NCBI GenBank assembly: GCA_934692455.1
Contig: CAKUTY010000001.1
Span: forward strand, 1 to 40,867
DNA length: 40,867 bases
From: an uncultured Erysipelotrichaceae bacterium
Lineage (GTDB): Bacteria > Bacillota_I > Bacilli_A > Erysipelotrichales > Erysipelotrichaceae
Direction: 5' to 3'
In this document: piece by piece, positions 8,289-39,976 of the stretch
How the letters are laid out: every line of letters begins with the position of its first letter
Numbering within the stretch: the first letter of the stretch is position 1
Notes under the pieces: model-generated
Seen by the model: only the letters and a program-made list of their open reading frames with translations
Told to the model about the DNA's origin: nothing
Database searches by the model: none
Program-made: the position numbers and the translations under genes

Positions 8289-8350
8289 ATTTTTAATAAA
8301 GTTAATAGGCTAAAAGCTTAAATTAAGATATTATTGTATTGGAGATTTAT

Positions 8351-9718: not shown

Positions 9719-9719
9719 T

Positions 9720-11101: not shown

Positions 11102-11119
11102 AAGTATGAGGTGAATAAA

Positions 11120-12589: not shown

Positions 12590-12625
12590 TAGCTTTTATT
12601 GGTCTCTTATTTTATAATTTATTAG

Positions 12626-23480: not shown

Positions 23481-25223
23481 TTTCTTTATAAAAATTTGAT
23501 AAAGACAAACGATTATAAATACAATCAATGAAATTTTAGATACAAACATTGAATATGTTTGTATCTTTGTTTCTTGATAATAAACATCATAAGTTATTGT
23601 TTCGTCTGATTTATAAACGTTAAATTTAACATTTCCACTAATTTTGTCTTGAACCGGATTAATTGTTTCTATGATTGATCCATTTTTTATTATGTCTACT
23701 TTGTATCCATTGTAGTAAGTTTTAGGAACAATGACATAAGCGTTATAATGCGAATTTGATAAGATATTGAATTTGTAGTGGTAGTACTCATACATTTCAA
23801 AACCATTAGGATCTATTTCCATTTCTTCACTTGTATCGATTATTGAGTGGCTTTTTGAGAAAGCCGGTGTTTCATAAGGATAATTAATATAATTTGTTTT
23901 TGCGACAGGTAAATAGTCACCACTGCTTAAGGCTTGTGAGTCATAATAAGTTTCATTTTCATATGGCTTGTATAAAACCTCATAAGCTTCGTCTAATGAC
24001 ATGTTGTCGGTATAACCATAGACACCTGTAAGATTTGGTGATAATGCAAATGCAGTAAATACTATGATTATTAAACATGTAACTGAAAGAATGAAGTATT
24101 TTAAAAAGCTATTTTTAAAATTAGCAATAAATATAGAAGTATAGTAAGCTCCAGATATAGCTAATAGTGGGATGATTATTACTAATAATCTGTTTGTGAA
24201 TTGCATAAAATTCATAAATTTAAACAACTGCCATGGAAAGTATTCGGTCATTATAAATAGTGTTACATAGCCAATTATTAAACAAACAAAAATGAATTTA
24301 TTATCCCTTTTCTTATTTTTTATAAATAAAGATGTTAATGGTAAAAATAATAAGAATGGTCCAATTGATGAACTTTGATAAAGAGAAAAGTCTGCCGAAA
24401 AGTTAAATAGTTCAACAATTTTTAAGCCTTGCATAATTGAGACGCTATTAAAAGAATCGTTTACTTGTAGGTTGTTGTTAAACATCGCTTCTAACATTGG
24501 CAGTAAGAAAAAAGCACTTAATAAGAAGGCGAATAGAATACCTTTGATGATTGAGATAATTCTCTTTTTATTAATACTTTTGATGTTTATTAGAAAGAAT
24601 ATACCAAATAAGATACACATTAGGTAAAAAGAAATATTGTGGCTTAATGCTAGTCCTGTATAGCCGATGGTTAAAACTATCCATTTATTTTCATCTTCAT
24701 ATAATGCGTAATAAATACCTAATATAGCGATTGGTATAAATACTAGGGCTGTTAATTCGCCTAGTGCGCTTCTTCTAAATATTGAAGTGATTTGGTGGAT
24801 GTTTGGAACATAAATTAGCATCGCAATAATTGCAGGAATTAGTTTCTTTTTTGAGACAACATATAAATTAATGCCTATAAAAAATGTGGCTGCAAATATT
24901 AATGCACAAATATAAATTTTATATGAAACAATTAAAGAAATGCCTTTACTTATTAAAAAAACACATGGATATAAAAATAGTTGGCAATAGAAAAGCGGAG
25001 TTGGGTAGCCGAAGTCAAAGTTCATGTGCCAATAAATATGCGGGTATTTAATTCCTTCAACTATTGCGTCCCTATATGCTTGTATACGACTTAAATGGAA
25101 ACCGGTATCTGCACCTTTGTGTAAGATTCCGTTTGAAAAGGGGTAACAAAATAAGATGGCTATTATAATTGATAAAAATAATATAGATGTAAAGCTTAAT
25201 ATATATTTTTTATTTCTTGTCAT
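23463..25223 (-). CDS. Polytopic membrane protein, YfhO-like GT-C-fold glycosyltransferase candidate (paralog B)
   Basis: 586 aa. Shares GADTGFHLSRI...FDFGYPTPLFYCQLFLYP, RSALGE, LLPMLEAM and the C-terminal YYNGYKVDIIKNG... plus terminal TM with the ORF at 675-2330. Divergent from the CsbB-like GT2 at 25331. Confidence 0.55.
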   Translation of the reverse strand: MTRNKKYILSFTSILFLSIIIAILFCYPFSNGILHKGADTGFHLSRIQAYRDAIVEGIKYPHIYWHMNFDFGYPTPLFYCQLFLYPCVFLISKGISLIVSYKIYICALIFAATFFIGINLYVVSKKKLIPAIIAMLIYVPNIHQITSIFRRSALGELTALVFIPIAILGIYYALYEDENKWIVLTIGYTGLALSHNISFYLMCILFGIFFLINIKSINKKRIISIIKGILFAFLLSAFFLLPMLEAMFNNNLQVNDSFNSVSIMQGLKIVELFNFSADFSLYQSSSIGPFLLFLPLTSLFIKNKKRDNKFIFVCLIIGYVTLFIMTEYFPWQLFKFMNFMQFTNRLLVIIIPLLAISGAYYTSIFIANFKNSFLKYFILSVTCLIIIVFTAFALSPNLTGVYGYTDNMSLDEAYEVLYKPYENETYYDSQALSSGDYLPVAKTNYINYPYETPAFSKSHSIIDTSEEMEIDPNGFEMYEYYHYKFNILSNSHYNAYVIVPKTYYNGYKVDIIKNGSIIETINPVQDKISGNVKFNVYKSDETITYDVYYQETKIQTYSMFVSKISLIVFIIVCLYQIFIKKLFSHF

Positions 25224-25330: not shown

Positions 25331-26248
25331 ATGTTGAGTATTATTGTTCCGTGTAAAAATGAAGAAGAAGCTATTCCGTTGTTTTATCCAGTGTTAAAAG
25401 AAAACTTAGATAAGATGGATGTTGAATATGAATTGCTAATTGTTGATGATGGTTCAACTGATAAGACAGTTGAAGTTTCTTTGAAATTGAAAGAAAAAGA
25501 TCCTAATATCAAGGTAATCAGTTTTTCACGTAACTTTGGTAAAGAAGCTGGTATGTTAGCTGGTATGAAAGAGGCTAAGGGTGATTATGTGGTTATCATG
25601 GACGCTGACTTGCAAGATCCACCTGCTTTATTGTCTGAAATGTATAACTATGTAAGTAGTGGTGAATATGATAGTGCTGCTACTTATAGAGTTACTAGAA
25701 AGGGTGAACCACCTATTAGATCTTTCTTTGCACGTCAATTCTATAAGTTAATCAATAAGATGATTGATGTTGAGATTGTGGATGGAGCTAGAGATTATCG
25801 TTTGATGAATCGTAAGATGGTTGATGCGATTATTTCTTTACCTGAATATAATCGTTTTTCTAAGGGTATTTTCTCTTGGGTTGGTTTTAAGACCAAATAT
25901 ATCGAATTTGAAAATGTTGAAAGAGTAGCTGGTGAGACTAAGTGGAGTTTCTTTAAATTATTTAGTTATGCGATTGATGGCATCGTAGGATTTACTACAG
26001 CACCACTTCGTATTGCGACATATTCTGGTTTATTTGTATCTTTATTTGGCTTTATCTATATGCTTTATATCGTGATTAAAGCCTTAACCATCGGTGATCC
26101 GGTTGCTGGCTATCCTAGTATGATTGCGATTATTTGTTTACTTGGTGGTATTCAATTATTAGTGATTGGTATCATGGGTGAATATTTAGGTAAGACTTAT
26201 ATGGAGTCTAAGAAGAGACCTCAATATATCGTAAAGGAAATTAAATAA
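25331..26248 (+). CDS. GT2 polyprenyl-phosphate glycosyltransferase (GtrB/CsbB/ArnC-like), copy 2
   Basis: LSIIVPCKNEEEAI, LLIVDDGSTDKT, SRNFGKEAGMLAG, MDADLQDPP. Two C-terminal TM helices (IATYSGLFVSLFGFIYMLYIV, MIAIICLLGGIQLLVIGIMGEY). Confidence 0.85.
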   Translation: MLSIIVPCKNEEEAIPLFYPVLKENLDKMDVEYELLIVDDGSTDKTVEVSLKLKEKDPNIKVISFSRNFGKEAGMLAGMKEAKGDYVVIMDADLQDPPALLSEMYNYVSSGEYDSAATYRVTRKGEPPIRSFFARQFYKLINKMIDVEIVDGARDYRLMNRKMVDAIISLPEYNRFSKGIFSWVGFKTKYIEFENVERVAGETKWSFFKLFSYAIDGIVGFTTAPLRIATYSGLFVSLFGFIYMLYIVIKALTIGDPVAGYPSMIAIICLLGGIQLLVIGIMGEYLGKTYMESKKRPQYIVKEIK

Positions 26249-27651
26249 TGTTTATAGGGAATTATTATTATGAGCCAATCACATCACTTCCGGCGCTGAC
26301 TGTTACTAGTGCTTATTTTGTGATGTTTTGTTTCGTTGTATTTTGTTTATCTAGGCCTTTTAAGTCATTCTTAAGGCCTTTAATTTTGCTTATAGCTAAC
26401 TTTATTTTTGTTTATTCTTTTGGATTAAACAATTTATTATGGTTATTAGGCTTTTCTTTAATGGGTTATGTATTAGGTCTTATTAACGGAAAGTATCACA
26501 ATAAACATATAGTTATTGTTTCATCATTAATATATGGTGTTGCGTTATTAGGATATAAACTTATTAATTTAACAGATAGTAGTATTATTATTCCTTTAGG
26601 TTTATCTTTCTACTCATTTAAAATCATTTCCTATTTGTGTGATATTTATTCTGGAAAGATTAAGGCAGAAAAGAATATTATTTATTATTTAGATTATGTG
26701 ATGTTCTTTCCTTGTATTACAGCAGGACCTATTAATAGAGCTGATTTATTTTTAAAGGAAATTAGAAGTAAACATGAATTTGATTATCAAGATATTGCGA
26801 CAGGTTTCTTTTTAGTAGCTTGTGGTATTTTTGAGAAACTTGTATTTTGTGACTTTATTGGAAGTGTTGTAACTAAGAGTTTAAATGTTGAATTAAGTGG
26901 TTTGAATACATTACTTGGAGTTGTTTTATATTCATTTCAAATATATTTAGATTTTGATTCTATTTCTAATATCGCAATCGGTACAGCTAGAATGCTGGGC
27001 TTTAAGTTAGAAAGAAACTTCCATGTGCCTTATTTAGCTACTAGTATTAAAGACTTCTGGAATAGATGGCATATTTCTTTATCATCTTGGTTAAGAGATT
27101 ATATTTATTTCCCATTGGGTGGTGGAAGAAAAGACGATTTAAGAAAGTATTTGAATGTTCTAATTGTTTTCTTTGTATCATCTTTATGGCATGGTATTAC
27201 GTTAAACTTCTTAATTTGGGGTATGGGTCATGGTGTAATCAGAATTATTGAAGATTTAATTGCGAAGTTGTTTAAGAATAAGAAACCAAATTTCTTTGTG
27301 TCTTTATTGTTAATATTTATTAATTTTATAATAGTAACTACTTTGTGGATTTTCTTTAAATATGATTTTAGTGATGCGATAGCTACTATTCAAAGAATTT
27401 TTGTGAAATCACCTTTGAACTTTGAAACAATCGGTTTAACTCATAATGAAGTAATTTGGTTATGTATTGTCTTATCTACTGTAGTGATTACAGATATCCT
27501 ACGTTATTTCTTTGATTTAGGAGAATTCTTTGGCAAACATATCTTTATTATTAGATTTATATTATATGCGGCTATGATTTTATTGTTCCTTGTCTTTGGA
27601 ATGTATGGTGGCAGCTTTGATGCGAATGATTTTATTTATAGGTGGTTTTAG
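26248..27651 (+). CDS. MBOAT-family membrane O-acyltransferase, copy 2
   Basis: Polytopic. FWNRWHISLSSWLRDYIYFPLGGGRKD...SSLWHG. TAATG overlap with the upstream GT2 stop. Confidence 0.9.
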   Translation: MFIGNYYYEPITSLPALTVTSAYFVMFCFVVFCLSRPFKSFLRPLILLIANFIFVYSFGLNNLLWLLGFSLMGYVLGLINGKYHNKHIVIVSSLIYGVALLGYKLINLTDSSIIIPLGLSFYSFKIISYLCDIYSGKIKAEKNIIYYLDYVMFFPCITAGPINRADLFLKEIRSKHEFDYQDIATGFFLVACGIFEKLVFCDFIGSVVTKSLNVELSGLNTLLGVVLYSFQIYLDFDSISNIAIGTARMLGFKLERNFHVPYLATSIKDFWNRWHISLSSWLRDYIYFPLGGGRKDDLRKYLNVLIVFFVSSLWHGITLNFLIWGMGHGVIRIIEDLIAKLFKNKKPNFFVSLLLIFINFIIVTTLWIFFKYDFSDAIATIQRIFVKSPLNFETIGLTHNEVIWLCIVLSTVVITDILRYFFDLGEFFGKHIFIIRFILYAAMILLFLVFGMYGGSFDANDFIYRWF

Positions 27652-27653
27652 TT

Positions 27654-29084
27654 ATGAATAAAGTATTAAAAACGATTTGGAGCTTATTAAAAATAGTCAT
27701 GGGCGTATGTGTAATATGCGCCACTTTCTATTTTGGTTATAATTTTTTGAGTAGCAAATTCAGAAATCCTGATGTTTATTATAACGACTCGTTTCATAAT
27801 TTACCCGAAGATAGCATGGATGTTATTGTACTTGGCTCAAGTCATGCGCAATATTCTTTTTCTCCTACTTTCTTTTATGAAGATACAGGTTTGTACGCAT
27901 ATACATTAGGCAGTGCTTGTCAACCTTTAGAAGTTTCTTACCAAATGTTAAGAGAAGCTTTAAAGACACAAAGCCCAAAGCTTGTAATTTTAGAGGCTTA
28001 TACTGCTACACCACTAAGGAGTGCTTGTGAGACTGATACTTGTTATGTTACGGCTGAATATCAAATGCGGGGCATGGAAAAGATTAATACTATTAATTAT
28101 CTTTCTGAGGAAAAAGCCGCTACTTATCGCAATGACTTTATGAATTATCATAATGATTGGAGAACTAAAGAATCTTTTGATTTCTTATTTGAAGAAAATG
28201 ATAAAAGTATCGATTCATCTCTTGGCTATCTGCCATTAGAATCTGACTATGTTTATGAAAATTGGTGGTATGCTAGCGTTTACGATGATAAAAGTAGTGA
28301 TGTTAATCTTGATGAGTTAGATTTTGAATCTTTGAATAATATTTTGAATCTATGTAGAGAAAATGATATTGAACTCTTAATGTATTTTGTGCCTATGGAT
28401 ATGCTTGATGAATTAAATCAAAAGTATCGTTATAAGGTTTGGGACTTTTGTGAAGATAATGATATCAAATATGTTGATTTTGTGGATTTAAGTGAAGAGT
28501 TGGATTATCGTATTCCTATTCATAATGATGGATTCCATTCCAAAACAACAGGTGCAAGTGTCATTACTTCTTATTTGGCTAATTTTGTTAAAGAAAATGG
28601 ATATAAGTTTAGTCATAAAGACAACAACAAATTAAATGATATTTATAAATATTATGTTGATCATTATGATTATTTGGTATTTTGTGGGGAACACGATCCA
28701 AGCAAATATTTAGATAGGGTAGTGAAAAATCCTCGCCTAAAGTTAGTAAGATATCAAGGCAATCAATTAAATGATAGATTGAAAAAATTCTTTAATGATT
28801 TAAATTTAACTGAATTAGTAGAAGGTGATGATTATTACGCTATTATATATGATAATGAAATTTTGACATGTAGTAATAGCCCTGTTAGTTATGTTTTAGA
28901 TAGTCATGACATAGAACTAAACAAGGATGGAATTTATTTTGACGGCGAACAATTAACAACTGGAGATGAATTTGCCTTTGTTGTTTTCAATAGCGATTAT
29001 ACTGTTAAGCTGGTGAAAAAAATTACTTTTTCCAACGGATTGTTGTGGGATAGTGATTATGATTTTAACTATAATCATAAATAA
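27654..29084 (+). CDS. Membrane-anchored DltD-like/SGNH-type partner of MBOAT copy 2
   Basis: N-terminal signal anchor, VIVLGSSHAQYSF (candidate nucleophile Ser), a later IHNDGFHS (DxxH), and an extra ~130-aa C-terminal domain. I prefer the ATG at 27654 over the GTG at 27642. Confidence 0.55.
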   Translation: MNKVLKTIWSLLKIVMGVCVICATFYFGYNFLSSKFRNPDVYYNDSFHNLPEDSMDVIVLGSSHAQYSFSPTFFYEDTGLYAYTLGSACQPLEVSYQMLREALKTQSPKLVILEAYTATPLRSACETDTCYVTAEYQMRGMEKINTINYLSEEKAATYRNDFMNYHNDWRTKESFDFLFEENDKSIDSSLGYLPLESDYVYENWWYASVYDDKSSDVNLDELDFESLNNILNLCRENDIELLMYFVPMDMLDELNQKYRYKVWDFCEDNDIKYVDFVDLSEELDYRIPIHNDGFHSKTTGASVITSYLANFVKENGYKFSHKDNNKLNDIYKYYVDHYDYLVFCGEHDPSKYLDRVVKNPRLKLVRYQGNQLNDRLKKFFNDLNLTELVEGDDYYAIIYDNEILTCSNSPVSYVLDSHDIELNKDGIYFDGEQLTTGDEFAFVVFNSDYTVKLVKKITFSNGLLWDSDYDFNYNHK

Positions 29085-29127: not shown

Positions 29128-29838
29128 ATGGTGTTACAATATCGAGGTATGAAAAATTTATTTAAGAACCCTAAGACAAGAAAGAGAAATTTAATTCTTG
29201 CGATTTTGCCCTTTGTTATAATTGCTAGCATATGTGGCTTTATAGCATTTAAGTCTGTTAATTCGATAAGTGGTAATGCTCAAGGAACTTCAAAAGAATC
29301 TTATAAAGATTCGATTGATTCCATGGATTACCATTTAAGAAGTAATGCGACTAAGTATCAAACAGAGCTTTTTAGAGAATTAACTAAAGCTATTGAAGAT
29401 GGAACTGATAAGTATAATATTGCAAGACTAGTTGCAGAAAACTATGTTGCAGATTTCTACACATGGTCTAATAAAGATGGTACTTATGATGTTGGTGGTA
29501 TGTATTATGTTTATTCACCACAAAAAACTACAATTTATACACAAGCTCGTAATACTTACTATAAATATGTAACTTACTATATTAACCAATTTGGTGCTAA
29601 AAACTTATTGGAAGTTGAAAATATAACTTCAACTTTAGGTGACAAGGTAGGCTCTTACGAATTTGAAGGTAAGAAATATGACTCTTATTTTGTAACTTGT
29701 GAATGGACATATAAGAATGAAGATACTTTCAAAGATATAAGTATGAAATCAGGTGATGACTTTGTTAAGAAAGAGTATTTCACAATTATTGAAAAAAATG
29801 GGCGTTTTGAAATTGTTCAAGCGTATGGTGATAACTAA
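29128..29838 (+). CDS. Hypothetical single-pass membrane protein with an extracytoplasmic domain, translationally coupled to the LCP gene
   Basis: A basic N-terminus plus one TM (LILAILPFVIIASICGFIAF), then a ~190-aa Tyr-rich soluble domain. The segment ARLVAENYVADFYTWSN recalls NTF2-like/TcpC-type domains (weak, memory only). The start is ambiguous (ATG at 29128 or 29149). TAATG overlap with the LCP start. Confidence 0.5.
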   Translation: MVLQYRGMKNLFKNPKTRKRNLILAILPFVIIASICGFIAFKSVNSISGNAQGTSKESYKDSIDSMDYHLRSNATKYQTELFRELTKAIEDGTDKYNIARLVAENYVADFYTWSNKDGTYDVGGMYYVYSPQKTTIYTQARNTYYKYVTYYINQFGAKNLLEVENITSTLGDKVGSYEFEGKKYDSYFVTCEWTYKNEDTFKDISMKSGDDFVKKEYFTIIEKNGRFEIVQAYGDN

Positions 29839-32267
29839 TGGCTAGAAAAAAGAAAAATAAGCTATCAGCTTTAAGTATTGGATCTTTAGTAACGGCAATA
29901 TTAGCTCATATTGCAGTTATTTTGTTTGTTGTTCTTGCAAGAGGTTATTTCAACTTAGAATTAAAAGTAATTATTTGTGCTTTAGTCGTTATTGTCTGTG
30001 TATTGGTTATTATCGATATTCTTCTCGTATATGGTGTTAATTTTAGAGACATTGCGTCTAGAATTATTATTATCGTGCTATCTATTCTTATGATGGTTGT
30101 TGGCTTTGGAGGTAGTTATTATGTTTCTAAAGTTAATAAGGCGGTTGATAATGCGATTGAAAATACAGGTACAGACCAATATGAAACAATTAGCGGTTCT
30201 TTTGTATATTACAGTGAGAATGGAACAGTTAAATATAAAGATTTAGATTCATTAAAGTCTGCATCTAATTTAAAAGTTGGTGTTGTTTTTGATGATGGTA
30301 TCGGTGTGGCTACCGCTGCTCAAAAGTTAATGGAAGATGAAGGAATCAAAGCTACTGTTACTACATATAGTAGTAGTGAAGAACTACTAGGTAATTTAAT
30401 TGGCAATGGTACTGATGAAATTGATGTTGCGGTTTTCCCTTCTTCATACAGACAAAGATGGTTGGCTGATGAGGAAGTCGACTATGCTCAATATCTAGAT
30501 CATGTTTATGATTTCCACAAGTTTGAAGATAAAGTAAAAACTGGTGAAAACAAGAATGCTAACAAGGATTTATATACAGAACCATTTAACATTCTATTGA
30601 TTGGTTTTGCTCCAGAAGATGAGGCAATGACTGTTGGCCTTGCTGACTCTATTATTGTGGCAACTGTTAATCCACAAACATTCACCGTATCTTTAACATC
30701 TATCGCAAGAGATACATATACAAAGTTAGCTTGTGCACCTAATAGTGAAAGACAAAAGATTAATGCAGCAAGAGCTTATAGTAGACAATGTTTAATGGAT
30801 ACTGTTGGTGAATTATTAGGTATAGATATTGATTACTATATGGAAGTTAACTTCTTGGGTGTAGTAGAAATTGTTGATGCTATTGGTGGTATTGTAGTTA
30901 ACAATCCAGTCGAATTTGTAGGTCAAACAGCTTCTGGTATTAGAGGCGAATTTACGGTTCTAGTTCCAGCTGGTGAAAATGTGCCTTGTGATGGTGAAAT
31001 GGCTTTAGCTTTCGCAAGAGAAAGACACGCTATGCCTAATGGTGATTTCGATCGTCAGAAGCACCAACAAGAAGTAATTGCTCGTATTGCCGAAAAATTA
31101 TTAGGCATGAATGATGTTAATAAGGCTTTAAAGGTTATGGAAGCCGCTGGAAAGAACTTTACAACTAATTTAAGTTTGAACCAATTAACTGGTATCTTCA
31201 GTTATATCATCAATCATAAGAACACAATTGGTATTCCAACGTTTAATATGATTGATATGCAAAGCATGAGAGTAACTGGTTATTCTTCTTGGTACTATAG
31301 TTATGTTATGAGACTTCCTCAATGGATTTATCGTTTGTATAATGGCTCAATTCAAGAATGTAAGGATCGTATCAATGATGTAATGAATAATTATTCCGTT
31401 AGCGATATAAAACAAGAAAGTTATATGAAATTCTTTGTTGAATATCCATATAGTCGTGGCAACTTATATAGCGATTACTTTAATGAAGAACAAGTTCATG
31501 AAAAGATGCCTGCTTGTTATCCATTGTTTGTTAATAAGGATTTAGCTACTGCAATTAGCTTAGCTCAAGAACAAGGCATTAACTTGGATATTACTTATAT
31601 TGAACCTGGTGATGCTGGATTTGAAGAAGGTTCAAGCGGTTTAGTTGTTGACCAATATCCTCGTCAAGGTGCATTGGTTGAAGAATATCCTACAGGAAAG
31701 ATTACTGTAATGGGCCCAAGCAATCCAGATGCTATTGAATACACAGTTGATAAGTGTGATGACGAGGCAAGTTGCATTGCGTTTGCTAATGCTAAGGGTA
31801 TTAGTTATAAGAAGGTAGCTGTTTATGATGCCATGAACGAACATAAGGAAGGCGAGTTCAACGGTACTAACTATAAGAATGGTGACAAGATTAAAAAGAG
31901 TGCGACTCTAGAAATCTATTTGTGGACTAAGAAAGTTACAGTTCCATCATTCACTGTTGGTACTAAGCTAGTGGATTACGAAGTTGCATTAACTAAGCTT
32001 GGATTAAAGTATACTGAGACAGCAAGTGCAGATGGTGCAACGGAGGCAAATAATGGTACTATTAAGAGCATAAGTCCAGGTGCAGGCACTGAAGCTAAGG
32101 CTGGTGACACTATCGCAATTACATACTTTAAGTACACTGCAACTACGCCTAAGCCAACTCCGAGCCCAGAGCCAAGTCCAGAGCCTACACCGGAACCGAG
32201 TCCTGAGCCTACACCGGAACCGAGTCCTGAGCCTACAGAGCCTAGTGAACCAGCTCCGGAAGCATAA
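29838..32267 (+). CDS. LytR-CpsA-Psr (LCP) family glycopolymer ligase with an N-terminal TM bundle, three PASTA-like repeats and a Pro-rich tail
   Basis: Three N-terminal TM helices. LCP core FNILLIGF...GLADSIIVATVNP...SIARDTY...INAA...VNFLGVVEIVDAIGGI...FARERH...GDFDRQKHQQEV. C-terminal repeats fit the PASTA consensus (e.g. VPSFTVGTKLVDYEVALTKLGLKY...GTIKSISPGAGTEAKAGDTIAITY). Tail is (S/T)PEP repeats. Confidence 0.85.
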   Translation: MARKKKNKLSALSIGSLVTAILAHIAVILFVVLARGYFNLELKVIICALVVIVCVLVIIDILLVYGVNFRDIASRIIIIVLSILMMVVGFGGSYYVSKVNKAVDNAIENTGTDQYETISGSFVYYSENGTVKYKDLDSLKSASNLKVGVVFDDGIGVATAAQKLMEDEGIKATVTTYSSSEELLGNLIGNGTDEIDVAVFPSSYRQRWLADEEVDYAQYLDHVYDFHKFEDKVKTGENKNANKDLYTEPFNILLIGFAPEDEAMTVGLADSIIVATVNPQTFTVSLTSIARDTYTKLACAPNSERQKINAARAYSRQCLMDTVGELLGIDIDYYMEVNFLGVVEIVDAIGGIVVNNPVEFVGQTASGIRGEFTVLVPAGENVPCDGEMALAFARERHAMPNGDFDRQKHQQEVIARIAEKLLGMNDVNKALKVMEAAGKNFTTNLSLNQLTGIFSYIINHKNTIGIPTFNMIDMQSMRVTGYSSWYYSYVMRLPQWIYRLYNGSIQECKDRINDVMNNYSVSDIKQESYMKFFVEYPYSRGNLYSDYFNEEQVHEKMPACYPLFVNKDLATAISLAQEQGINLDITYIEPGDAGFEEGSSGLVVDQYPRQGALVEEYPTGKITVMGPSNPDAIEYTVDKCDDEASCIAFANAKGISYKKVAVYDAMNEHKEGEFNGTNYKNGDKIKKSATLEIYLWTKKVTVPSFTVGTKLVDYEVALTKLGLKYTETASADGATEANNGTIKSISPGAGTEAKAGDTIAITYFKYTATTPKPTPSPEPSPEPTPEPSPEPTPEPSPEPTEPSEPAPEA
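32181..32237 (+). repeat. Exact 24-bp tandem repeat (2.4 copies) inside the Pro-rich tail of the LCP gene
   Basis: GAGCCTACACCGGAACCGAGTCCT occurs at 32181-32204 and identically at 32205-32228, followed by a partial GAGCCTACA at 32229-32237. Degenerate copies lie upstream from ~32157. This is a local G+C-rich island encoding EPTPEPSP units. Confidence 0.9.
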
Positions 32268-32332: not shown

Positions 32333-34384
32333 ATGAAGAAGATATTTTTACTTTTAATGATAATATTGTTATCTTCATGCAGTTTTGGCAATAAAGAAAA
32401 TGAGGATGACGATAAAAAGGAAGAGATTGTCAACGTAAACAACTATGACAATATTCCTGTAGAAGAATTTAAACCTTATAAAGAAACTTTTAACAATAAT
32501 TCCGCATGGAATTTAGAAGGTGACGGCAGTTTTGTATCTGAACTAAATAAAAAACAAATAGTTGTAAATAATGGTGAAGTTACATTGAAAAGTAGTCCCT
32601 TTATGATGAAAAATGGTAACTATAATGTTTCTTTCATCAGCTCCAATAGCGGACATATTAAGATTGCTTCAAATGACGATGTTTATTTAGATTCTGATTT
32701 TGAAATTGGTGATGTTTCTCTTGATTACCGATTATCAGATATAAATTATGAAGTTGTTGTTAGTTTATCTTTTGCTGGTAATAGTGAAGTTGATGATTTT
32801 AGTATTAGTTGTGACAATAAAACCTATGGTGCCTTATCTAATCAAATCGCTTATTTAGATAAATTGAACAAACAAGTAGTCTTTAATAATAACCCAGGAA
32901 ATTATTATGGCATTTATAACGCAAACGATGATTCGCTAGTATATGCAGAGAATGTTTCGGAGGCGATTTTTGAAAACGATACAAATCAATGGCTATATAA
33001 GGGATATTTCAAAGATTTAGAAACTGGTGGTGAATATTATATAAAAAGCGAATTTGGATACTATTCTAAAAACTTCTCTATAAACGATAGCTACAATGAA
33101 CTGTTAGAAAGTGTTTTAGAAGCTATTTATGTTCAAAGATGTGGACATGATACAGAAGGTGTTTTAGGTCACCCTGCGTGTCATACGGCGCCTAGCAAGG
33201 TGTTTAGTTATACAAAGGAAGAATTCATCGATACAACGGGTGGTTGGCATGATGCTGGTGATTATGGTAAGTATGGTGTTGTTGAAAATAAAGTAATTGC
33301 TGATTTACTATTTTCGTATTTATATGGCGCCAATAAAGACGAAAAGTTAATTGATGAAATTAAGTTTGGTTTAGATTACGTCTTAAAACTCCAAAATGAA
33401 TATGGAGGCGTTTATAACAAAGTTGTAAGTAAAAACTTTGCTGACTTTGTGTCTCCAGAATTAGATGAACAAGAAACATATTTATTAAATCCATGGACTT
33501 CAGTAACCGCATCTTTTGCGGGTATTACAGGATTAGCCTATGAAGCGTTTAAAAATGATGATAAAGAATTGGCGGATAAATGTTTAAATGCGCATAATAA
33601 GGCAATTGATTATTTACTAAATAATCAAAATCCATCTAATCCAAAAAACCCCGATGAGTTTAATGTTGGGACATATTATGTAGAAAACGAAACTGATGAG
33701 AGATTATTTGCCTATAGTGTGGCTTATAAGCTTACTAGAGATAATAAATATAAAGAATTATGTAAATCTTTATTAGATACTGGTGTTGATTCTGATAATA
33801 TGGTTGCCAATTGCAGAACCTACGCCTATATTGTTTTGTTAGATAGCTTGGAATATAACAGTAAAGAATATGTTCAAGCTAAAGAAAGATTAAAATCAGA
33901 TTGCGATGCGATATGTGATGGTGTATCTTCTAATGTTTATGCTTATCCGTATACCGCATATGCATGGGGATCTAACCAACACGTATGCGAAGCTATTAAC
34001 AAGTTATTATTGGCATCAAGATATTTTAAAGACGAAAGATATGTAGTAAAGGCAAGTGAAATGATTGATTATATTCTTGGTCTAAATGTATTAGATATGT
34101 CATTTATTTGGGGTTATGGATATAAATATCCTCAAACTATTCATTCTCGTTTAGCTTATGCCAAGGGTCAAAATATGATTAAGGGTGCTATGTGTAATGG
34201 TGTTGACCAATTACTAAGTGATGGCGAAATAGGTAAGTACTTTAGTGAAGATTCTCCAATCGCAACTAGATTTGTGGACAATAGTGATAGCTATTCTAAT
34301 GTAGAACCAGCTATAAACTACAACTCTGCCCTTTATTTATCATTAAGTTTACTAGAGTACGCCAATAGAAAGCCTATTCAATAG
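32333..34384 (+). CDS. Lipoprotein glycoside hydrolase family 9 (N-terminal CBM-like and Ig-like modules plus GH9 catalytic domain)
   Basis: Signal peptide with lipobox (MKKIFLLLMIILLSSC). GH9 catalytic Asp motif TTGGWHDAGDYGKY (33239-33274). FVDNSDSYSNVEPAINYNSA (34271-34330) fits the PROSITE GH9 signature-2 pattern as I recall it, including the catalytic Glu. Near match to signature 1 (GYKYPQTIHSR). AAAGGAGAG RBS. Confidence 0.85.
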   Translation: MKKIFLLLMIILLSSCSFGNKENEDDDKKEEIVNVNNYDNIPVEEFKPYKETFNNNSAWNLEGDGSFVSELNKKQIVVNNGEVTLKSSPFMMKNGNYNVSFISSNSGHIKIASNDDVYLDSDFEIGDVSLDYRLSDINYEVVVSLSFAGNSEVDDFSISCDNKTYGALSNQIAYLDKLNKQVVFNNNPGNYYGIYNANDDSLVYAENVSEAIFENDTNQWLYKGYFKDLETGGEYYIKSEFGYYSKNFSINDSYNELLESVLEAIYVQRCGHDTEGVLGHPACHTAPSKVFSYTKEEFIDTTGGWHDAGDYGKYGVVENKVIADLLFSYLYGANKDEKLIDEIKFGLDYVLKLQNEYGGVYNKVVSKNFADFVSPELDEQETYLLNPWTSVTASFAGITGLAYEAFKNDDKELADKCLNAHNKAIDYLLNNQNPSNPKNPDEFNVGTYYVENETDERLFAYSVAYKLTRDNKYKELCKSLLDTGVDSDNMVANCRTYAYIVLLDSLEYNSKEYVQAKERLKSDCDAICDGVSSNVYAYPYTAYAWGSNQHVCEAINKLLLASRYFKDERYVVKASEMIDYILGLNVLDMSFIWGYGYKYPQTIHSRLAYAKGQNMIKGAMCNGVDQLLSDGEIGKYFSEDSPIATRFVDNSDSYSNVEPAINYNSALYLSLSLLEYANRKPIQ

Positions 34385-34398
34385 TATAATTATTAAGT

Positions 34399-35370
34399 AT
34401 GTATAAATTAACAATCGTAGTAGCTATATATAACGTTGAAAACTATCTAAAGAAATGCTTAGATTCTTTAGTTGACCAAACATGTGGTGATTATCAAGTG
34501 TTTTGTGTCAATGATGGTTCTACTGATAAAAGTAGAGATATCATCTTGGATTACTTAAATAATGATAAATTCAAATTATTAGATAAAACTAATGGTGGTT
34601 TAAGTGATGCGAGAAACTATGGAATAGAGAGATGTGAGAGTGAATATATTTCTTTTATCGATGGCGATGACTTTGTAGAAAACAATTATGTAGAAACAAT
34701 CATTAACACACTAGATAAAGACAAGAGTGCTATGATGGTCTTTTCGTACAATCAGTATTATCTAGCTAATGGTAGTAAAGAACTCGTAAGTTTAAAAGTT
34801 GAAAATGGTATCTATAACTTAAAAGATAAAAAAGAATTATTAGCTTATACACCAAATGCTGCTTGGAATAAGGCTTATAAGACATCATTATTTAAAGATA
34901 ATAAGATACTTTATCCTTATGGATATCGTCATCAAGATATGGGAACAACTCCTAAGTTATTATTAAAGGCTAATAGCATTTCTTATGTTGATAAACCTTT
35001 ATATAACTATCTAATTGATAGACCAAATAATATAACAGCTCAAATCGATAAGAAACTATATCACATCATTGATATGGCTAAAGAAGTTATGGACTACTAT
35101 ATATCAGAAAACTGTTTTGATGAATATGTTGATGAATTTGCATATTTGATTAAAAGAAACTTCATTCAATCATTAAGAAAATCAATGAAGTTACAAGATA
35201 AGAAATTTGTCTATCAATTCATAGATGATATCTTCGATGTAGAAGATAAGTACTTCAAAAATAGTAAAGACATCTATCGTGTTAATGAAGAAAAGGGTGA
35301 TGATGTTTATTTGTCACGTATTAAATGTAAGTTATATTATGCACTAAAGAGGTTGAAAAATGGAAAATAA
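34399..35370 (+). CDS. Glycosyltransferase family 2 (GGLSDARN type)
   Basis: LTIVVAIYNVENYLKKCLDSL, CVNDGSTDKS, NGGLSDARNYGI, FIDGDDF. 323 aa, the same length and type as 18315-19286. Confidence 0.85.
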   Translation: MYKLTIVVAIYNVENYLKKCLDSLVDQTCGDYQVFCVNDGSTDKSRDIILDYLNNDKFKLLDKTNGGLSDARNYGIERCESEYISFIDGDDFVENNYVETIINTLDKDKSAMMVFSYNQYYLANGSKELVSLKVENGIYNLKDKKELLAYTPNAAWNKAYKTSLFKDNKILYPYGYRHQDMGTTPKLLLKANSISYVDKPLYNYLIDRPNNITAQIDKKLYHIIDMAKEVMDYYISENCFDEYVDEFAYLIKRNFIQSLRKSMKLQDKKFVYQFIDDIFDVEDKYFKNSKDIYRVNEEKGDDVYLSRIKCKLYYALKRLKNGK

Positions 35371-37582
35371 GATAAGTATCATTGTCCCTGTATATAATGT
35401 TGAAAAATATATTGGCAAGTGTTTAGAATCACTTGTTAAACAAGACTATAGTAACTACGATATTTTGGTAGTTAATGATGGTTCACCTTTTAATGAACAA
35501 GCAATCATTGATGAATATGTTAAGAAATATCCAAGTATCATTAAGAGTATTGTGAAGGAAAATGGCGGCTATGGTAGTGTTTTACAATTGGCCTTCAACA
35601 AAAGCGATGCGGACTATGTTTTAGTATGCGATCCGGATGATTACCTATCTAATGATGCCCTAAGTACCTTAATCGCTTATCAAAAGAAAGATAATGTTGA
35701 TCTGGTTGTTGGTGCTAAGAATTTGGTATATGAAGATAGTGATGAAGAAACATATGACGCTTCTTATAATGCTGAATTTGGAAAACTTGTTGATGGCAAG
35801 AAATATACAAGAGGAAACAAAGACTTTGATGTGTTATTCTTCCTAGAACCATCACCACATGCCAAGTTATATAAAAGATCAATTGTAAAGGATATCGTTT
35901 TCACAACTAAAGTTAGTTATACTGACAACCTTTTGTATTTCTATACTTTAAATAATGTTAAGAGTGTAACATATTGTGGAAAAGCCTTAAGCTATTATTT
36001 GATTAATAGAAGTGGTAATACTAGAACTGATTTAAAACCTACTATTATTGATAGTTGGGTTAAGGTATTTAATTCAATCATGGATCAAGTATCTAATCCT
36101 TGTGATATCTTCTATTATCGTATGTTTGAATCTTTTTATTCTATTTACTATAAGATTGATAATATAGGTGGAGACAAGGATGTTAAGTTTTCTAAGTATG
36201 AATTATTATATAGTTTCTTAGAAAAGTTAATTAAGCATAAGGATTTAATCTTAAAATATAATGACTTATACCAAGAAGAATCTCCTAAAATGAGAAGACA
36301 AAAGGAAGCTTTGTTAAGTAGTGATACATCACTTAAAACCTACAACAAGCTGGTAAATGATAGAGTAAATGGTTCTTTTAAGACTAAAATTAAAAATAGA
36401 ATTCTTGATACTAAGTTATATTCTATTTATCATTTCCATGCCAAATATTACAAGACTCGTAATGATGAGAAGATGTATTTAGCCAAGGACGTTAAGGGTG
36501 ATTTAGTATTCAATGATGACAAGGTGCATTTCTTTGGTTATTATGTAAGACCATGTGTTTATAATGGCAAGGTTTTATCTCATCGTTTAAATGAAGATAA
36601 TTTTAACTATAAACAAGAAATTGATATTTTAGTTGATGATGAAAAGATATCTTCATCAAAAGCATGGAACTTTCAACAGGGTTCTATGGCTACTTGGACC
36701 AGTGATAAGCACATTATTCATAATGACTTTGATGGTACTAAATATATCAGTAAGCTTATTAATATCGAAACTAAGGAAGTTAAGATAATTGATTATCCTA
36801 TCTATTCTGTAAGCAATGATGGAAGTTTTTCTTTGAGCTTAAACTTCTCAAGGCTTGCTAAATTAAGAAAAGACTATGGTTACTTTAATCTTCCTTACAA
36901 TAATTTAGAAGATGAATCAAATGATGGTATTTATTATGTTGATATTAAAAATAATACTTATTCATTATGGCTATCACTAAAAGACATTAAAGACTTTAAG
37001 ACAAGTGATACGATGATTGATGCCGTTCACAAGGTTAATCACATCGACCTATCACCAGATAATACTAAGGCTATATTCTTACATCGTTGGTTTAAAGAAG
37101 GCATTAAGTATACAAGATTATTGTGTGTTGATTTAAAGACTAAAGAGCTAAAAGTATTAGCTGATAATAAAATGGTTTCACATATGTGCTGGTACAATAA
37201 TGAAACATTATTTGGCTATTTAAGAGGGAACAATAATCAAGATGGCTATTTCTTTGTTGATTTAGATGGAAACCAAAAACACTTTAAACATGAATTATTA
37301 GTAGATGATGGTCATCCTACTGTTTTAAACAAGCGTTATATCGTTACCGATGCTTATCCTGACTATACTTGTAAGTCTAAATTGATGTTGATTGATTTAA
37401 AGAAGAACACAGTTAAGATTCTTGGAAAGTTCTATTCATATAAAAAGTATCAAGACGATAGAAGATGTGACCTTCATCCTCGTTTCGATGATAAGGGTAA
37501 CATGTTAACACTTGATACTGTATGTAGTGGCAAAAGAAATATCTGTCACTTAGATATTAGTGCTTTGATTGAGAAACAATAA
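35360..37582 (+). CDS. Bifunctional-looking protein: N-terminal GT2 (GGYGS type) fused to a C-terminal PD40/TolB-like beta-propeller-type domain
   Basis: N-terminal ISIIVPVYNVEKYIGKCLESL, VVNDGSP, ENGGYGSVL, VCDPDDY (paralog of 19283-20266). The C-terminal ~350 aa have repeated PD40-like motifs (TWTSDKHIIHNDF, SVSNDGSFSLSL, IDLSPDNTKAIFLHRW, FVDLDGNQKHF, DLHPRFDDKGNMLTLDT). No TM or signal peptide. AGAGG RBS. 11-nt overlap with the upstream gene. Confidence 0.7.
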   Translation: MENKISIIVPVYNVEKYIGKCLESLVKQDYSNYDILVVNDGSPFNEQAIIDEYVKKYPSIIKSIVKENGGYGSVLQLAFNKSDADYVLVCDPDDYLSNDALSTLIAYQKKDNVDLVVGAKNLVYEDSDEETYDASYNAEFGKLVDGKKYTRGNKDFDVLFFLEPSPHAKLYKRSIVKDIVFTTKVSYTDNLLYFYTLNNVKSVTYCGKALSYYLINRSGNTRTDLKPTIIDSWVKVFNSIMDQVSNPCDIFYYRMFESFYSIYYKIDNIGGDKDVKFSKYELLYSFLEKLIKHKDLILKYNDLYQEESPKMRRQKEALLSSDTSLKTYNKLVNDRVNGSFKTKIKNRILDTKLYSIYHFHAKYYKTRNDEKMYLAKDVKGDLVFNDDKVHFFGYYVRPCVYNGKVLSHRLNEDNFNYKQEIDILVDDEKISSSKAWNFQQGSMATWTSDKHIIHNDFDGTKYISKLINIETKEVKIIDYPIYSVSNDGSFSLSLNFSRLAKLRKDYGYFNLPYNNLEDESNDGIYYVDIKNNTYSLWLSLKDIKDFKTSDTMIDAVHKVNHIDLSPDNTKAIFLHRWFKEGIKYTRLLCVDLKTKELKVLADNKMVSHMCWYNNETLFGYLRGNNNQDGYFFVDLDGNQKHFKHELLVDDGHPTVLNKRYIVTDAYPDYTCKSKLMLIDLKKNTVKILGKFYSYKKYQDDRRCDLHPRFDDKGNMLTLDTVCSGKRNICHLDISALIEKQ

Positions 37583-38549
37583 AGTCATCGATATTGTCTT
37601 TATTCAACCAATAGCCAAAGCCTTGTTCATATAGGTTTCCATAATAGGCATGGAAGGCAATACATTCAAGAACCATATCACTGACTTCGGCGTTGTAATG
37701 AGAATTATCAATCCAATAAGCAGAATTTGTAGTAATATCGTTATAACCTGAGAAGTTGCAAAATTCAGTTATATTAGCTAATTCTTTTAAGAATTTTAAA
37801 TAGTTTTGATCTAGTGCAGCTTCATAAGTTACATAATACATAGGATTTGTGAACACCACAAACTTAATGTTGTTGGCATCACATAATTCCTTCAATTCTT
37901 TGATTTCAGCTATCGTTTCCTTAAGACGATAGCTTTTTCCTATACTTGGTTCTGCATTATCAAAGTCATAATTACTTGTAGCTCCATAGTCAGAATTCCA
38001 ACCAAATTCATAGAAACGATAGGCATAAGAATCATCAACTTTATGTTTGTAGATGACAGTGGTTAATGATTTAAAAGCCATGGCTGGATCTAGATAATAT
38101 GAATAGAACTTAATAGGGTTTGTCTTTGATAATTCATATGAGGCATTAGAAGAACTATTATGGCTTAATGGATCAATAGTATATGACAAATTATCAACGC
38201 CTAGATAAATAGCCTTAACATAAACACCATTATCGATTAAAGTTTTCACATTGTTTAAAGCTTCTACCGGTAATCCTTCTGAATAGGTCATATTATAAGC
38301 CTTTTCTCCCCATAGATTATTGGCGTGGATATTACCAACTCTACTAGAACCAAAGATAAAAGTATCAAACTTATCAGGATTATCTAAAATATATGTCATC
38401 TTTATAAAGTTCTTATTTGGCTCTACACCATTGTCTTTAATATCTAGAGGATGAAACACATTAAAAGGATCAATATATATCGATAATGATACAGATATTA
38501 ACGCTAGAATCAAAATAAAGAATAATGTTTTTTTAATAAATCTTTTCAT
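37557..38549 (-). CDS. Membrane-anchored DltD-like/SGNH-type partner of MBOAT copy 3
   Basis: N-terminal signal anchor (TLFFILILALISVSLSIYI), TFIFGSSRVGNI (candidate nucleophile Ser), C-terminal IDNSHYN (DxxH). Starts 2 nt after the MBOAT stop. Confidence 0.55.
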   Translation of the reverse strand: MKRFIKKTLFFILILALISVSLSIYIDPFNVFHPLDIKDNGVEPNKNFIKMTYILDNPDKFDTFIFGSSRVGNIHANNLWGEKAYNMTYSEGLPVEALNNVKTLIDNGVYVKAIYLGVDNLSYTIDPLSHNSSSNASYELSKTNPIKFYSYYLDPAMAFKSLTTVIYKHKVDDSYAYRFYEFGWNSDYGATSNYDFDNAEPSIGKSYRLKETIAEIKELKELCDANNIKFVVFTNPMYYVTYEAALDQNYLKFLKELANITEFCNFSGYNDITTNSAYWIDNSHYNAEVSDMVLECIAFHAYYGNLYEQGFGYWLNKDNIDDFIVSQSKH

Positions 38550-38551
38550 AA

Positions 38552-39976
38552 TTAGAATTGGAAATAAATAAAGTTAACTTCACCTACATAATGTAGTAAT
38601 AGAATCATCAATAATAAGATGAAGTAAGCTAAGTATCTAATTGCCTTTGGCTTGTTATTTAAGATAGTTAGGGCATCATATTTAACATTTATATAATCGA
38701 TGATAAATAGTGGAATTAGATAAATTGCTAACATCGTCAATAGATATGGGGCTTTTACACCAAAGCTATATAAACCAGAGACGATATATGATTTAGGACT
38801 AGTAATACCTTCAAAGATATGTTTAAAGATATATAGGGCATCATGTAGATTGGAAGCTCTAAAGAAGACCCAAGTAATTGACATTAAGATAAAGATTAGA
38901 GAGACTTTAATAAACCATGTGAATGAATAGGTTTTAGTGTTCTTCTTAATATGAAATATATCTTCAAGGATTTGTAATAAACCATGAATACCACCCCAAA
39001 TCACAAAAGTGATATTAGCGCCATGCCATAAGCCACTTACTAGAAATGTTGCGAGTAAATTAAAGTAATGTCTAAGTCTACTACAACGATTACCACCTAG
39101 CGGAATATAGACATAGTCTTTAAACCATGATGATAAGGAGATGTGCCATCTAGACCAGAATTCTTTAATAGTTGTAGAGAAATATGGAGTCTTGAAGTTG
39201 TCCATCAAATCGATATTTAATAGTTTGGCAGAGCCTTTGGCGATATCAGAATAGCCTGAGAAGTCACAATAGATTTGGATTGTGAAAAAGAAGGCTGCTA
39301 ATACTAGGGCAAAACCTTGGTAATAAGATAAATCGTTATAAACCATATCAACATAGTAAGCTAAATTATCGGCTACAACTATTTTCTTAAAGAAACCAAC
39401 GGTCATTAACTTTAATCCATATACAGCCTTGTTGTAGTCAAATTCTTTTTCTTTTCTAAGTTGCGGTAATAGATTATCAGGTCTTTCAATGGGACCGGCA
39501 ACAAGTTGTGGAAAGAAGGATACAAATGTTGCGTAGTAGCCAAAATGTTTCTCAGCCTTAATATTTCCTCTGTAGACATCTATGCAATAACTTAATGTTT
39601 GGAAGGTATAGAAGGAAATGCCTACTGGTAATAATAAATTTAATGAAATGCTATGTAGTTTATTGCCTAGTAGGTAGTTAATTGTTTCAAAGAAAAAGTT
39701 GAAATATTTAAACACAAAAAGAATCCCTAAACAAACAAGAAGGGTAATGATTAATATTAGTTTCTTATGTTCTATATTCTTTTCTATTAAGATTGCACAT
39801 AAATAGGAAGTAAAAGTAGTGATAAATATTAGAAACACATACTTGGCGTTCCATGACATATAGAAGTAATATGAGGCAATCAACAATAAGATCCAACGGT
39901 ATTTGTTTGGTAGTAGCCAATAGATGATAAATACCAAGGGTAAAAAAATGGCATAGCTTAAAGAATTAAATAACAT
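38552..39976 (-). CDS. MBOAT-family membrane O-acyltransferase, copy 3
   Basis: Polytopic. FWSRWHISLSSWFKDYVYIPLGGNRCS...SGLWHG. TAATG overlap (minus strand) with the upstream lipid kinase gene. Confidence 0.9.
   Translation of the reverse strand: MLFNSLSYAIFLPLVFIIYWLLPNKYRWILLLIASYYFYMSWNAKYVFLIFITTFTSYLCAILIEKNIEHKKLILIITLLVCLGILFVFKYFNFFFETINYLLGNKLHSISLNLLLPVGISFYTFQTLSYCIDVYRGNIKAEKHFGYYATFVSFFPQLVAGPIERPDNLLPQLRKEKEFDYNKAVYGLKLMTVGFFKKIVVADNLAYYVDMVYNDLSYYQGFALVLAAFFFTIQIYCDFSGYSDIAKGSAKLLNIDLMDNFKTPYFSTTIKEFWSRWHISLSSWFKDYVYIPLGGNRCSRLRHYFNLLATFLVSGLWHGANITFVIWGGIHGLLQILEDIFHIKKNTKTYSFTWFIKVSLIFILMSITWVFFRASNLHDALYIFKHIFEGITSPKSYIVSGLYSFGVKAPYLLTMLAIYLIPLFIIDYINVKYDALTILNNKPKAIRYLAYFILLLMILLLHYVGEVNFIYFQF

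Follow-up and report, generated by a model that had tools for sequence, protein, structure and literature searches.

Oligogalacturonate lyases (OGLs) of family PL22, represented by YeOGL (3PE7) and the Vibrio protein VPA0088 (3C5M), are cytoplasmic propellers composed of PD40-type blades, and we take their structures to be seven-bladed. As in propeller enzymes in general, their active sites are located at the top face around the central channel. Abbott and co-workers in 2010 reportedly assigned Arg217 as charge neutraliser, His242 as Bronsted base, and His287, Gln350, His353 and His355 as Mn2+ ligands. Blade repeats of the PD40 type are also found in TolB and in further propellers such as tricorn and the N-domains of S9 peptidases. 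Among glycosyltransferases (GTs), enzymes carrying a second catalytic domain (GT2-GT2, GT2-GT4) tether consecutive cytoplasmic steps, and to our knowledge no glycan-biosynthetic enzyme with a propeller fold has been described. In this study, we analyzed a stretch of 40,867 nucleotides (nt) from an uncultured Erysipelotrichaceae bacterium (assembly GCA_934692455.1, contig CAKUTY010000001.1, positions 1 to 40,867; hereafter the window). An open reading frame (ORF) on its plus strand (35360..37582; 740 aa, ATG to TAA) encodes a GT2, a helical hairpin and a beta-propeller in one polypeptide. With a probability of about 0.6, we read its product as a bifunctional enzyme, in which the GT2 is joined to a second, metal-dependent catalytic propeller, whose substrate would be the lipid-linked repeat unit, still unflipped on the cytoplasmic side of the membrane.

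For structure prediction, the C-terminal 410 aa were modelled with AlphaFold2 (AF2), using an alignment of 114 homologues of this part as input. The model (mean pLDDT 95.3, pTM 0.91) starts with a hairpin of two helices, after which comes an all-beta domain, the propeller, which covers residues 372-735 (36473..37564, plus strand). Judged from the modelled strand count, the PD40-like blade starts and the near-complete superposition on the OGL structures, it probably has seven blades. In Foldseek searches the best matches were the PL22 OGLs 3c5m and 3pe7 (E 3e-12 to 7e-10, TM 0.59-0.66, about 405 aligned columns), with E 3e-12 for 3c5m and TM 0.61/0.66 for 3pe7. The propellers of TolB (TM about 0.42), tricorn and S9 peptidases ranked below the OGLs, the Foldseek probability being 1.0 for all of these alike, and among the viral structures of BFVD only generic propellers were found. 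Thereby, the PD40/TolB-type propeller that a first-pass annotation had read from the letters alone was recovered as a confidently predicted fold, and the possibility that no propeller would be predicted for this region falls away.

On the sequence level the relationship is remote. With residues 331-740 as query, no model of Pfam or NCBIfam was reached at thresholds up to E 10, and no sequence match in the PDB was obtained. Consequently for the model searches suggested in the annotation, neither PD40 nor PF14583 (Pectate_lyase22) was matched by the window protein itself, and the PD40 assignment stands through its relatives: 39 of the 114 homologues match PF07676, 43 match the TolB propeller-repeat model TIGR02800, and in homologue P0039 the final blade can be aligned with blades of TolB. 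PF14583 was matched by a single one of the 114 homologues (E 0.005). The C-terminal part retrieves 308 homologues, nearly all of them stand-alone proteins of 390-430 aa annotated as 'hypothetical protein'. A profile of the full family gave only marginal matches against the PDB, and with a profile of its C-terminal half the two OGL structures came first (E 0.027 and 0.06). As OGL reference set, we used four full-length OGL genes from plasmids, which adjoin kduI, kduD, kdgM or cupin genes; alignment of the whole family with these four by hhalign gave 91% probability (E 1e-6, 311 columns).

The alignment of the four OGLs contains the invariant residues Arg217, His242, His287, Arg349, Gln350, His353 and His355, and for most of them a counterpart was found in the window protein. 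His242, the reported base, corresponds to H608 both in the HMMER profile comparison with 3c5m and in hhalign, and His355-Pro356, which includes a reported Mn ligand, corresponds to H706-P707 in both alignments. The annotation had associated the terminal H-P-x-F motif with OGL-like propellers, and this reading holds, since HP at 706-707 aligns with His355-Pro356 and the best structural matches are PL22 OGLs. By hhalign, the neutralising Arg217 equals R586, and Arg349, which has no assigned role, equals R702, which HMMER sets against Gln350 instead. His287 is probably represented by H652, as indicated by HMMER and by the H-x-x-S-x-x-D-G (PD40) blade motif, with hhalign shifting this gap-rich region. 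Two of the reported Mn ligands are changed: His353 is replaced by the invariant Asp D704, and Gln350 falls on C703, a position that is Cys or variable and thus is without conserved counterpart.

Conservation was analyzed in 105 independent sequences, each representing one 50%-identity cluster. Of the polar residues, twelve (Q440, H561, H575, R576, R586, H608, H652, D664, R702, D704, H706 and R726) are each present in 94-105 of the 105, and this constellation is near-invariant from Bacillota to Archaea despite an overall identity of about 30%. Most of them are located in short motifs on the plus strand. The first is WNFQQG (residues 436-441, 36665..36682), an invariant Gln-Gln loop at a blade start seen in two family alignments, with Q440 in 102/105. 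HKVNH (557-561, 37028..37042) contains H561, which is set against OGL His192 by hhalign and occurs in 105/105. The segment from HRW (575-577) through R586 (37082..37117) holds H575 (98/105; His207 in OGL), R576 (101/105) and R586 (94/105), also placed by hhalign. S607-H608 (37178..37183; 105/105), at the start of a blade's innermost strand, is supported by HMMER and hhalign, DGHP (650-653, including H652; 37307..37318; 104/105) by HMMER and the PD40 register, and RCDLHP (702-707, 37463..37480), with R702, D704 and H706 each in 104/105, again by HMMER and hhalign. Among the 19 fused representatives that were listed individually, which together span every fusion architecture seen, 16 have the full set of twelve intact. 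Selection on this lyase-like active site of the family is very strong.

On these profile alignments and the predicted structure, the propeller family is an unnamed, distant relative or sister of PL22, and neither a PL22 member nor TolB. It is regarded as a sister rather than a member because PF14583, the full Mn site and the catabolic context are all missing. Identity between the family and the OGLs is about 13%, and unlike these, the family has a basic N-terminal hairpin and invariant motifs of its own (FFGYY, WNxQQG, RxDYGY, HRW and DxYPD). The window protein shares PD40-type blade repeats with TolB, but is not periplasmic, lacks the N-terminal alpha/beta domain of TolB as well as a Tol-Pal context, and at the aligned blade starts TolB has for example Glu-Pro or Ser-Pro where the family has an invariant His. 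Database and literature searches revealed no curated Pfam or NCBIfam family, solved structure or paper for the propeller family, so that the annotation's remark that no characterised example is known can be upheld.

By a pattern scan over 185,579 species genomes, the family was detected, with confirmed loci, in no fewer than 583 of them. The host lineages are Bacillota, Bacteroidota, Pseudomonadota, Actinomycetota, Saccharibacteria, Bathyarchaeia, Thermoproteales, Woesearchaeota and others; a member from Promethearchaeota was found by homologue search. For the gene neighbourhood, 76 loci with a callable gene were surveyed. Neighbours are mostly co-directional (66/72 upstream, 63/73 downstream) and often lie within 20 nt. 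Recurrent neighbours are GT2 genes in 51 loci (50 GT2 genes being directly adjacent), SDR epimerases/dehydratases in 36, GT4 in 24, DegT aminotransferases in 16 and UDP-sugar dehydrogenases in 14, in addition to Wzx, Wzy and acetyltransferases. Loci inspected singly in Parabacteroides, a spirochaete, a Promethearchaeon and Erysipelotrichaceae have a similar polysaccharide-biosynthetic context. All loci examined are biosynthetic, Wzx/Wzy-type polysaccharide loci, and a pectin or oligogalacturonide catabolic context was not found among them, in contrast to the real OGLs of L011 and L013, which are flanked by kduI, kduD and kdgM.

The survey of stand-alone and fused forms showed that the propeller is mostly encoded by a separate gene and that about one fifth of its members are fused (16/76 loci, 21/105 representatives), to GT2, GT4 or Wzx. 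The fusion types are GT2-propeller, propeller-GT2, GT4-propeller, propeller-GT4, GT2-GT2-propeller and Wzx flippase-propeller. In two Wzx-type flippases (Polysacc_synt; P0171, 887 aa, and P0194, 833 aa), the propeller forms a C-terminal extension. The C-termini of MOP-type flippases are cytoplasmic; both the Wzx fusions and the missing signal peptide and transmembrane segment place the propeller at the cytoplasmic membrane face. In the fusions it takes the position that a second GT has in P0124 (GT2-GT2) or in the L097 gene at 11232-13271, the difference to such multidomain enzymes being that the second domain of our ORF is a propeller and not a GT-A or GT-B fold. A dedicated partner subfamily of GT2 was also considered and rejected: outside Erysipelotrichaceae, adjacent GT2s score no better against the window GT2 than non-adjacent ones.

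Among close relatives four states were found: GT2 only, fused, split, and propeller only. The fused state is represented by the window, L014, L015, L018 and L097. The closest relatives of the GT2 half (66-79% identity) belong to the GT2-only state (L094, L095 and L096), in which a stand-alone GT2 of 339 aa is directly followed by a convergent gene and no propeller is present. L094 and L095 have the upstream GH9-GT2-GT2 order in common with the window, and L094, L095 and L096 the downstream flank. Compared to these syntenic loci, the window contains an additional propeller-coding segment of approximately 1.2 kb (about 36375..37555, plus strand), an indel cassette. Because the DNA right after the stop codon of the L094 GT2 gene shows homology to the final 30 nt of the window ORF, the propeller segment is a clean insertion or deletion. 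In the split state (L007), a 338-aa GT2, 59% identical end to end to the GT2 half of the window, is separated by 5 nt from its own propeller gene. In the propeller-only state (L001), a propeller with 71% identity follows a flippase gene with a gap of 1 nt, and an orthologous GT2 is absent. From these four states it follows that each half works without the other and that the propeller is a dispensable, strain-variable and independent module. Such a pattern is the behaviour of serotype-determining transferases or decorating enzymes and not of a core scaffold. The GT2-only and propeller-only relatives also rule out that the propeller is an obligatory accessory of this GT2. Of the three roles offered in the first-pass annotation, an acceptor-binding or chain-length module obligatory for this GT2 thus is unlikely, and a second catalytic domain is favoured; the third, a docking platform for the membrane machinery, is considered below.

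In the bifunctional enzyme proposed here, the ORF product would be a soluble, membrane-peripheral protein of cell-wall or capsular polysaccharide assembly. Its GT2 half, an ordinary inverting GT-A enzyme, would transfer one sugar onto the repeat unit linked to undecaprenyl diphosphate. On the top face of the propeller, the central channel would hold a metal/His/Arg active site inherited from a PL22-like ancestor. Here the propeller would perform one further step on the lipid-linked intermediate of the GT2, which might be a modification or an additional transfer, ahead of flipping by Wzx. Through the fusion, two consecutive, strain-variable steps would simply be tethered. The analysis shows the domain architecture, the fold, the homology to PL22, the conserved polar residues, the genomic context, the recurrent fusions and the variable presence of the propeller, and from there we infer its catalysis, metal binding, lipid-linked glycan substrate and place in the pathway.

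Several points weigh against this proposal. The location of the twelve residues at the starts of innermost strands and the ends of B-strands, i.e. at the top face and the central channel, was inferred from the DSSP strand topology of the model. The Mn2+ site of PL22 is incomplete in the family by the loss of Gln350 and the exchange of His353, although a different metal site is possible. Also, the equivalence of H652 and His287 depends on the alignment, with HMMER and the motif register in favour and hhalign not. Finally, propellers are classic binding platforms, and a scaffold would equally show fusions to GTs and Wzx. The propeller therefore might be non-catalytic, either as a docking platform for GTs and flippase or as a binder of the undecaprenyl-diphosphate-linked glycan or acceptor on behalf of a neighbouring GT. 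PD40/TolB-type propellers typically serve such a function, and 43 of 114 members match the TolB repeat model; the fusion partners GT2, GT4 and Wzx are the machinery a scaffold would bind, the basic amphipathic hairpin at the N-terminus points to a tether on the membrane, and one PL22 metal ligand is lost. A binding platform is, however, difficult to reconcile with a His/Asp/Arg/Gln constellation that remains near-invariant over such distances and coincides with the positions of the PL22 base, arginine and metal ligands. Since the partner GTs span more than one subfamily, this constellation is more typical of catalysis than of a partner-specific interface. The module furthermore is dispensable and strain-variable, unlike a core scaffold. 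We therefore consider a non-catalytic propeller unlikely, though conceivable.

With respect to the reaction of a catalytic propeller, PL22 chemistry consists of proton abstraction beside a carboxylate, which suggests a C5-epimerase or a lyase. As a special case of the bifunctional enzyme, the propeller thus could be a uronic-acid enzyme which has kept this chemistry, namely a hexuronate C5-epimerase (e.g. GlcA to IdoA) or a trimming or terminating lyase. The retained base His and neutralising Arg fit this idea, the window (11111-12589), L004, L008 and L097 contain genes for a UDP-sugar 6-dehydrogenase, and all uronate C5-epimerase classes known to us resemble lyase folds. A survey of 80 loci nevertheless gave no support for a link to uronic acids: a UDP-sugar dehydrogenase gene was found within 10 kb in only 20 of them and was never adjacent, which is a weak test, as loci may be longer than 20 kb and ugd frequently lies elsewhere. 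A proportion of this size is about the expectation for polysaccharide loci in general. In addition, with Gln350 lost and His353 replaced by Asp the coordination of the carboxylate may differ, and GT genes are the only near-universal neighbours, suggesting a substrate derived from housekeeping sugars. Taken together, retained uronate chemistry seems rather improbable.

More tentatively, and with the odds against it, the catalytic propeller could represent a new class of glycan-biosynthetic enzymes, either (a) a glycosyl- or phosphoglycosyl-transferase outside GT-A, GT-B and GT-C, or (b) a lyase-derived C5-epimerase acting on lipid-linked units. A transferase using a housekeeping nucleotide sugar is conceivable because GTs are the only near-universal neighbours and no particular genes for sugar precursors recur to this extent, the propeller occupies the slot of a second GT in the fusions, and many Arg residues are invariant. 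Such an enzyme would use the metal to bind the diphosphate of the donor, with His608 acting as base and the invariant Arg residues holding the phosphate.

As an alternative origin of the fusion, a frameshift, a sequencing error or a mis-assembly joining two genes was considered, as the separate GT2 and propeller genes of L007 are only 5 nt apart and a single error could fuse such a pair. The exact ORF protein, however, falls into a 90%-identity cluster of 657 members, and all 15 members that were listed are 739-740 aa long and come from many contigs of NCBI, ENA and Logan assemblies. An exhaustive HMMER search revealed the full-length fused relatives P0121 (745 aa, 71% identity) and P0122 (749 aa, 48%), the partial copy P0023 from a separate source has a junction sequence matching that of the ORF, and four Erysipelotrichaceae genomes of the species-level collection contain fused versions of 742-765 aa. 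The conserved junction and a like architecture are thus found in P0121, P0122, P0023, L014, L015, L018 and L020. The junction lacks an in-frame Met, and many stops interrupt the two remaining frames. By the size of the cluster, the distant fused relatives and the closed frames, an artefact is ruled out for practical purposes, and the fusion described in the first-pass annotation can be regarded as genuine.

The two halves are linked by a basic amphipathic two-helix hairpin (residues 338-366; 36371..36457, plus strand), delimited by DSSP on the AF2 model (helices 8-19 and 22-36 of the 410 residues) and by alignment with stand-alone members. According to the family alignment, it is the counterpart of the N-terminus of the stand-alone propeller proteins, which have the same basic N-terminus with a high hydrophobic moment. 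Residues 336-380 contain 11 Lys and Arg versus 4 Asp and Glu. From its sequence, the basic amphipathic hairpin in front of every propeller would possibly fit an interfacial membrane anchor. The part beyond the GT2 therefore begins at about nt 36371 (residue 338), somewhat before nt 36500 as estimated earlier.

The GT2 module comprises residues 1-338 (35360..36373, plus strand), i.e. the GT-A catalytic core and a C-terminal helical region typical of stand-alone relatives of about 339 aa. It was delimited by a PF00535 match at residues 6-179 (E 4e-30; 105.4 bits at a gathering cut-off of 23.3) and by end-to-end alignment with stand-alone GT2 genes of 338-339 aa, which are 59-79% identical and end where G338 is located. 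The NCBIfam equivalog level was not reached by this half (best score 74.6 bits, cut-off 423). In the translation, the nucleotide-binding Asp D40 (VNDGS; 35477-35479), the GGYGS motif (residues 69-73; 35564-35578) and the DxD metal/nucleotide-sugar motif DPDD (residues 91-94; 35630..35641) were read on the plus strand, D40 and DPDD being intact. The annotation of a GGYGS-type GT2 at the N-terminus thereby agrees with the domain search, and so does its view of the half as a paralogue of a stand-alone enzyme of the window, whose gene runs from 19262 to 20266 (43% identity in an alignment of 302 aa, E 2e-70). The further motifs it quoted all occur in the translation, each once: WTSD at 446, SNDGSFSL at 485, DLSPDNTKAIF at 563, DLDG at 634 and HPRFDDKGNMLTLDT at 706. 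Also as described there, the 740-aa protein has neither a transmembrane segment nor a signal peptide (maximum Kyte-Doolittle value of a 19-residue window 0.69).

An AGAGG Shine-Dalgarno-like site lies upstream of the ORF, whose start is located 11 nt inside the preceding GT2 gene (34399..35370, plus strand; 323 aa), which was identified from the ORF listing and a domain search and belongs to the same operon. The end of the ORF overlaps by 26 nt with a convergent gene for a 330-aa protein (37557..38549, minus strand), followed by MBOAT and DAGK-like genes. This flank is conserved also in L001, L094 and L096 and marks the variable 3' end of the locus. The G+C content of the window is about 29%, and the nearest relatives carry the label Erysipelotrichaceae according to the homologue search and the genome scan. 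Domain searches of the window ORFs showed that the whole window is a single long cell-wall or capsule polysaccharide locus. It contains genes for seven GT2 enzymes including the fusion, one GT4, a UDP-galactopyranose mutase, a sugar nucleotidyltransferase, a DegT aminotransferase and a UDP-sugar dehydrogenase, and further for three MBOAT acyltransferases, an LCP-PASTA ligase, a GH9 lipoprotein and several large membrane proteins.

Some of these genes have further features of their own. The gene at 11111-12589 (plus strand, GTG start) codes for a protein of the UDP-glucose/GDP-mannose dehydrogenase family with an N-terminal helix-turn-helix of the Cro/C1 type (residues 16-70), an unusual fusion. 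The three MBOAT paralogues (8339-11030 and 26248-29084, plus strand; 37557-39976, minus strand) have 35-38% mutual identity, and each is accompanied by a different partner of 330-480 aa. These partners are not similar to each other by BLAST, and only one of them has a weak AlgX/SGNH match. This arrangement suggests three separate O-acylation systems in one locus. The GH9 glycoside hydrolase (32333-34384, plus strand), with a signal peptide and the lipobox-like LLSSC, is syntenic in L094 and L095 and, by analogy to cellulose and alginate operons, may be a processing hydrolase. Upstream of it, the gene at 29838-32267 (plus strand) encodes an LCP (LytR-CpsA-Psr) ligase with a PASTA domain and a low-complexity tail, and similar LCP-PASTA proteins are present in L001. 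Two large paralogues (675-2330, plus strand; 23463-25223, minus strand), one of which matches PF10131 (PTPS_related), are 30% identical over 590 aa and possibly are GT-C-type extracytoplasmic glycosyltransferases.

Two loci of Erysipelotrichaceae type, L007 (5000-5986) and L097 (7043-8008), have a gene for an SDR epimerase/dehydratase directly in front of the GT2 and propeller unit, so that the order GT2, SDR, GT2/propeller is conserved; in the window, no SDR gene was found among the ORFs scanned. Defence or toxin-antitoxin-like genes are located at the variable locus edge in two cases: in L096 (585-1393) a nucleotidyltransferase/HepT-like pair of the MNT-HEPN type is found directly upstream of the polysaccharide genes, and in L003 (1105-2391) the fusion gene begins within a SLFN_AlbA_2/HATPase_c_4 gene, the two overlapping.

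The gene itself has already been public as 'hypothetical protein' or 'glycosyltransferase'; what appears to be new is the recruitment of a PL22/PD40-type propeller to polysaccharide biosynthesis. Surface polysaccharides determine phage sensitivity, immune recognition and niche adaptation, and their gene clusters hold many genes without known role. The propeller family, which has no name, model or structure, occurs in gut Bacillota and Bacteroidota and extends to Saccharibacteria and to several lineages of archaea. Should the family be an enzyme, it would supply a missing reaction for the prediction of glycan structures from sequence, and the assembly of glycans might gain a new catalytic fold. 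The variants with and without the propeller among close relatives provide a natural experiment on what the propeller adds.

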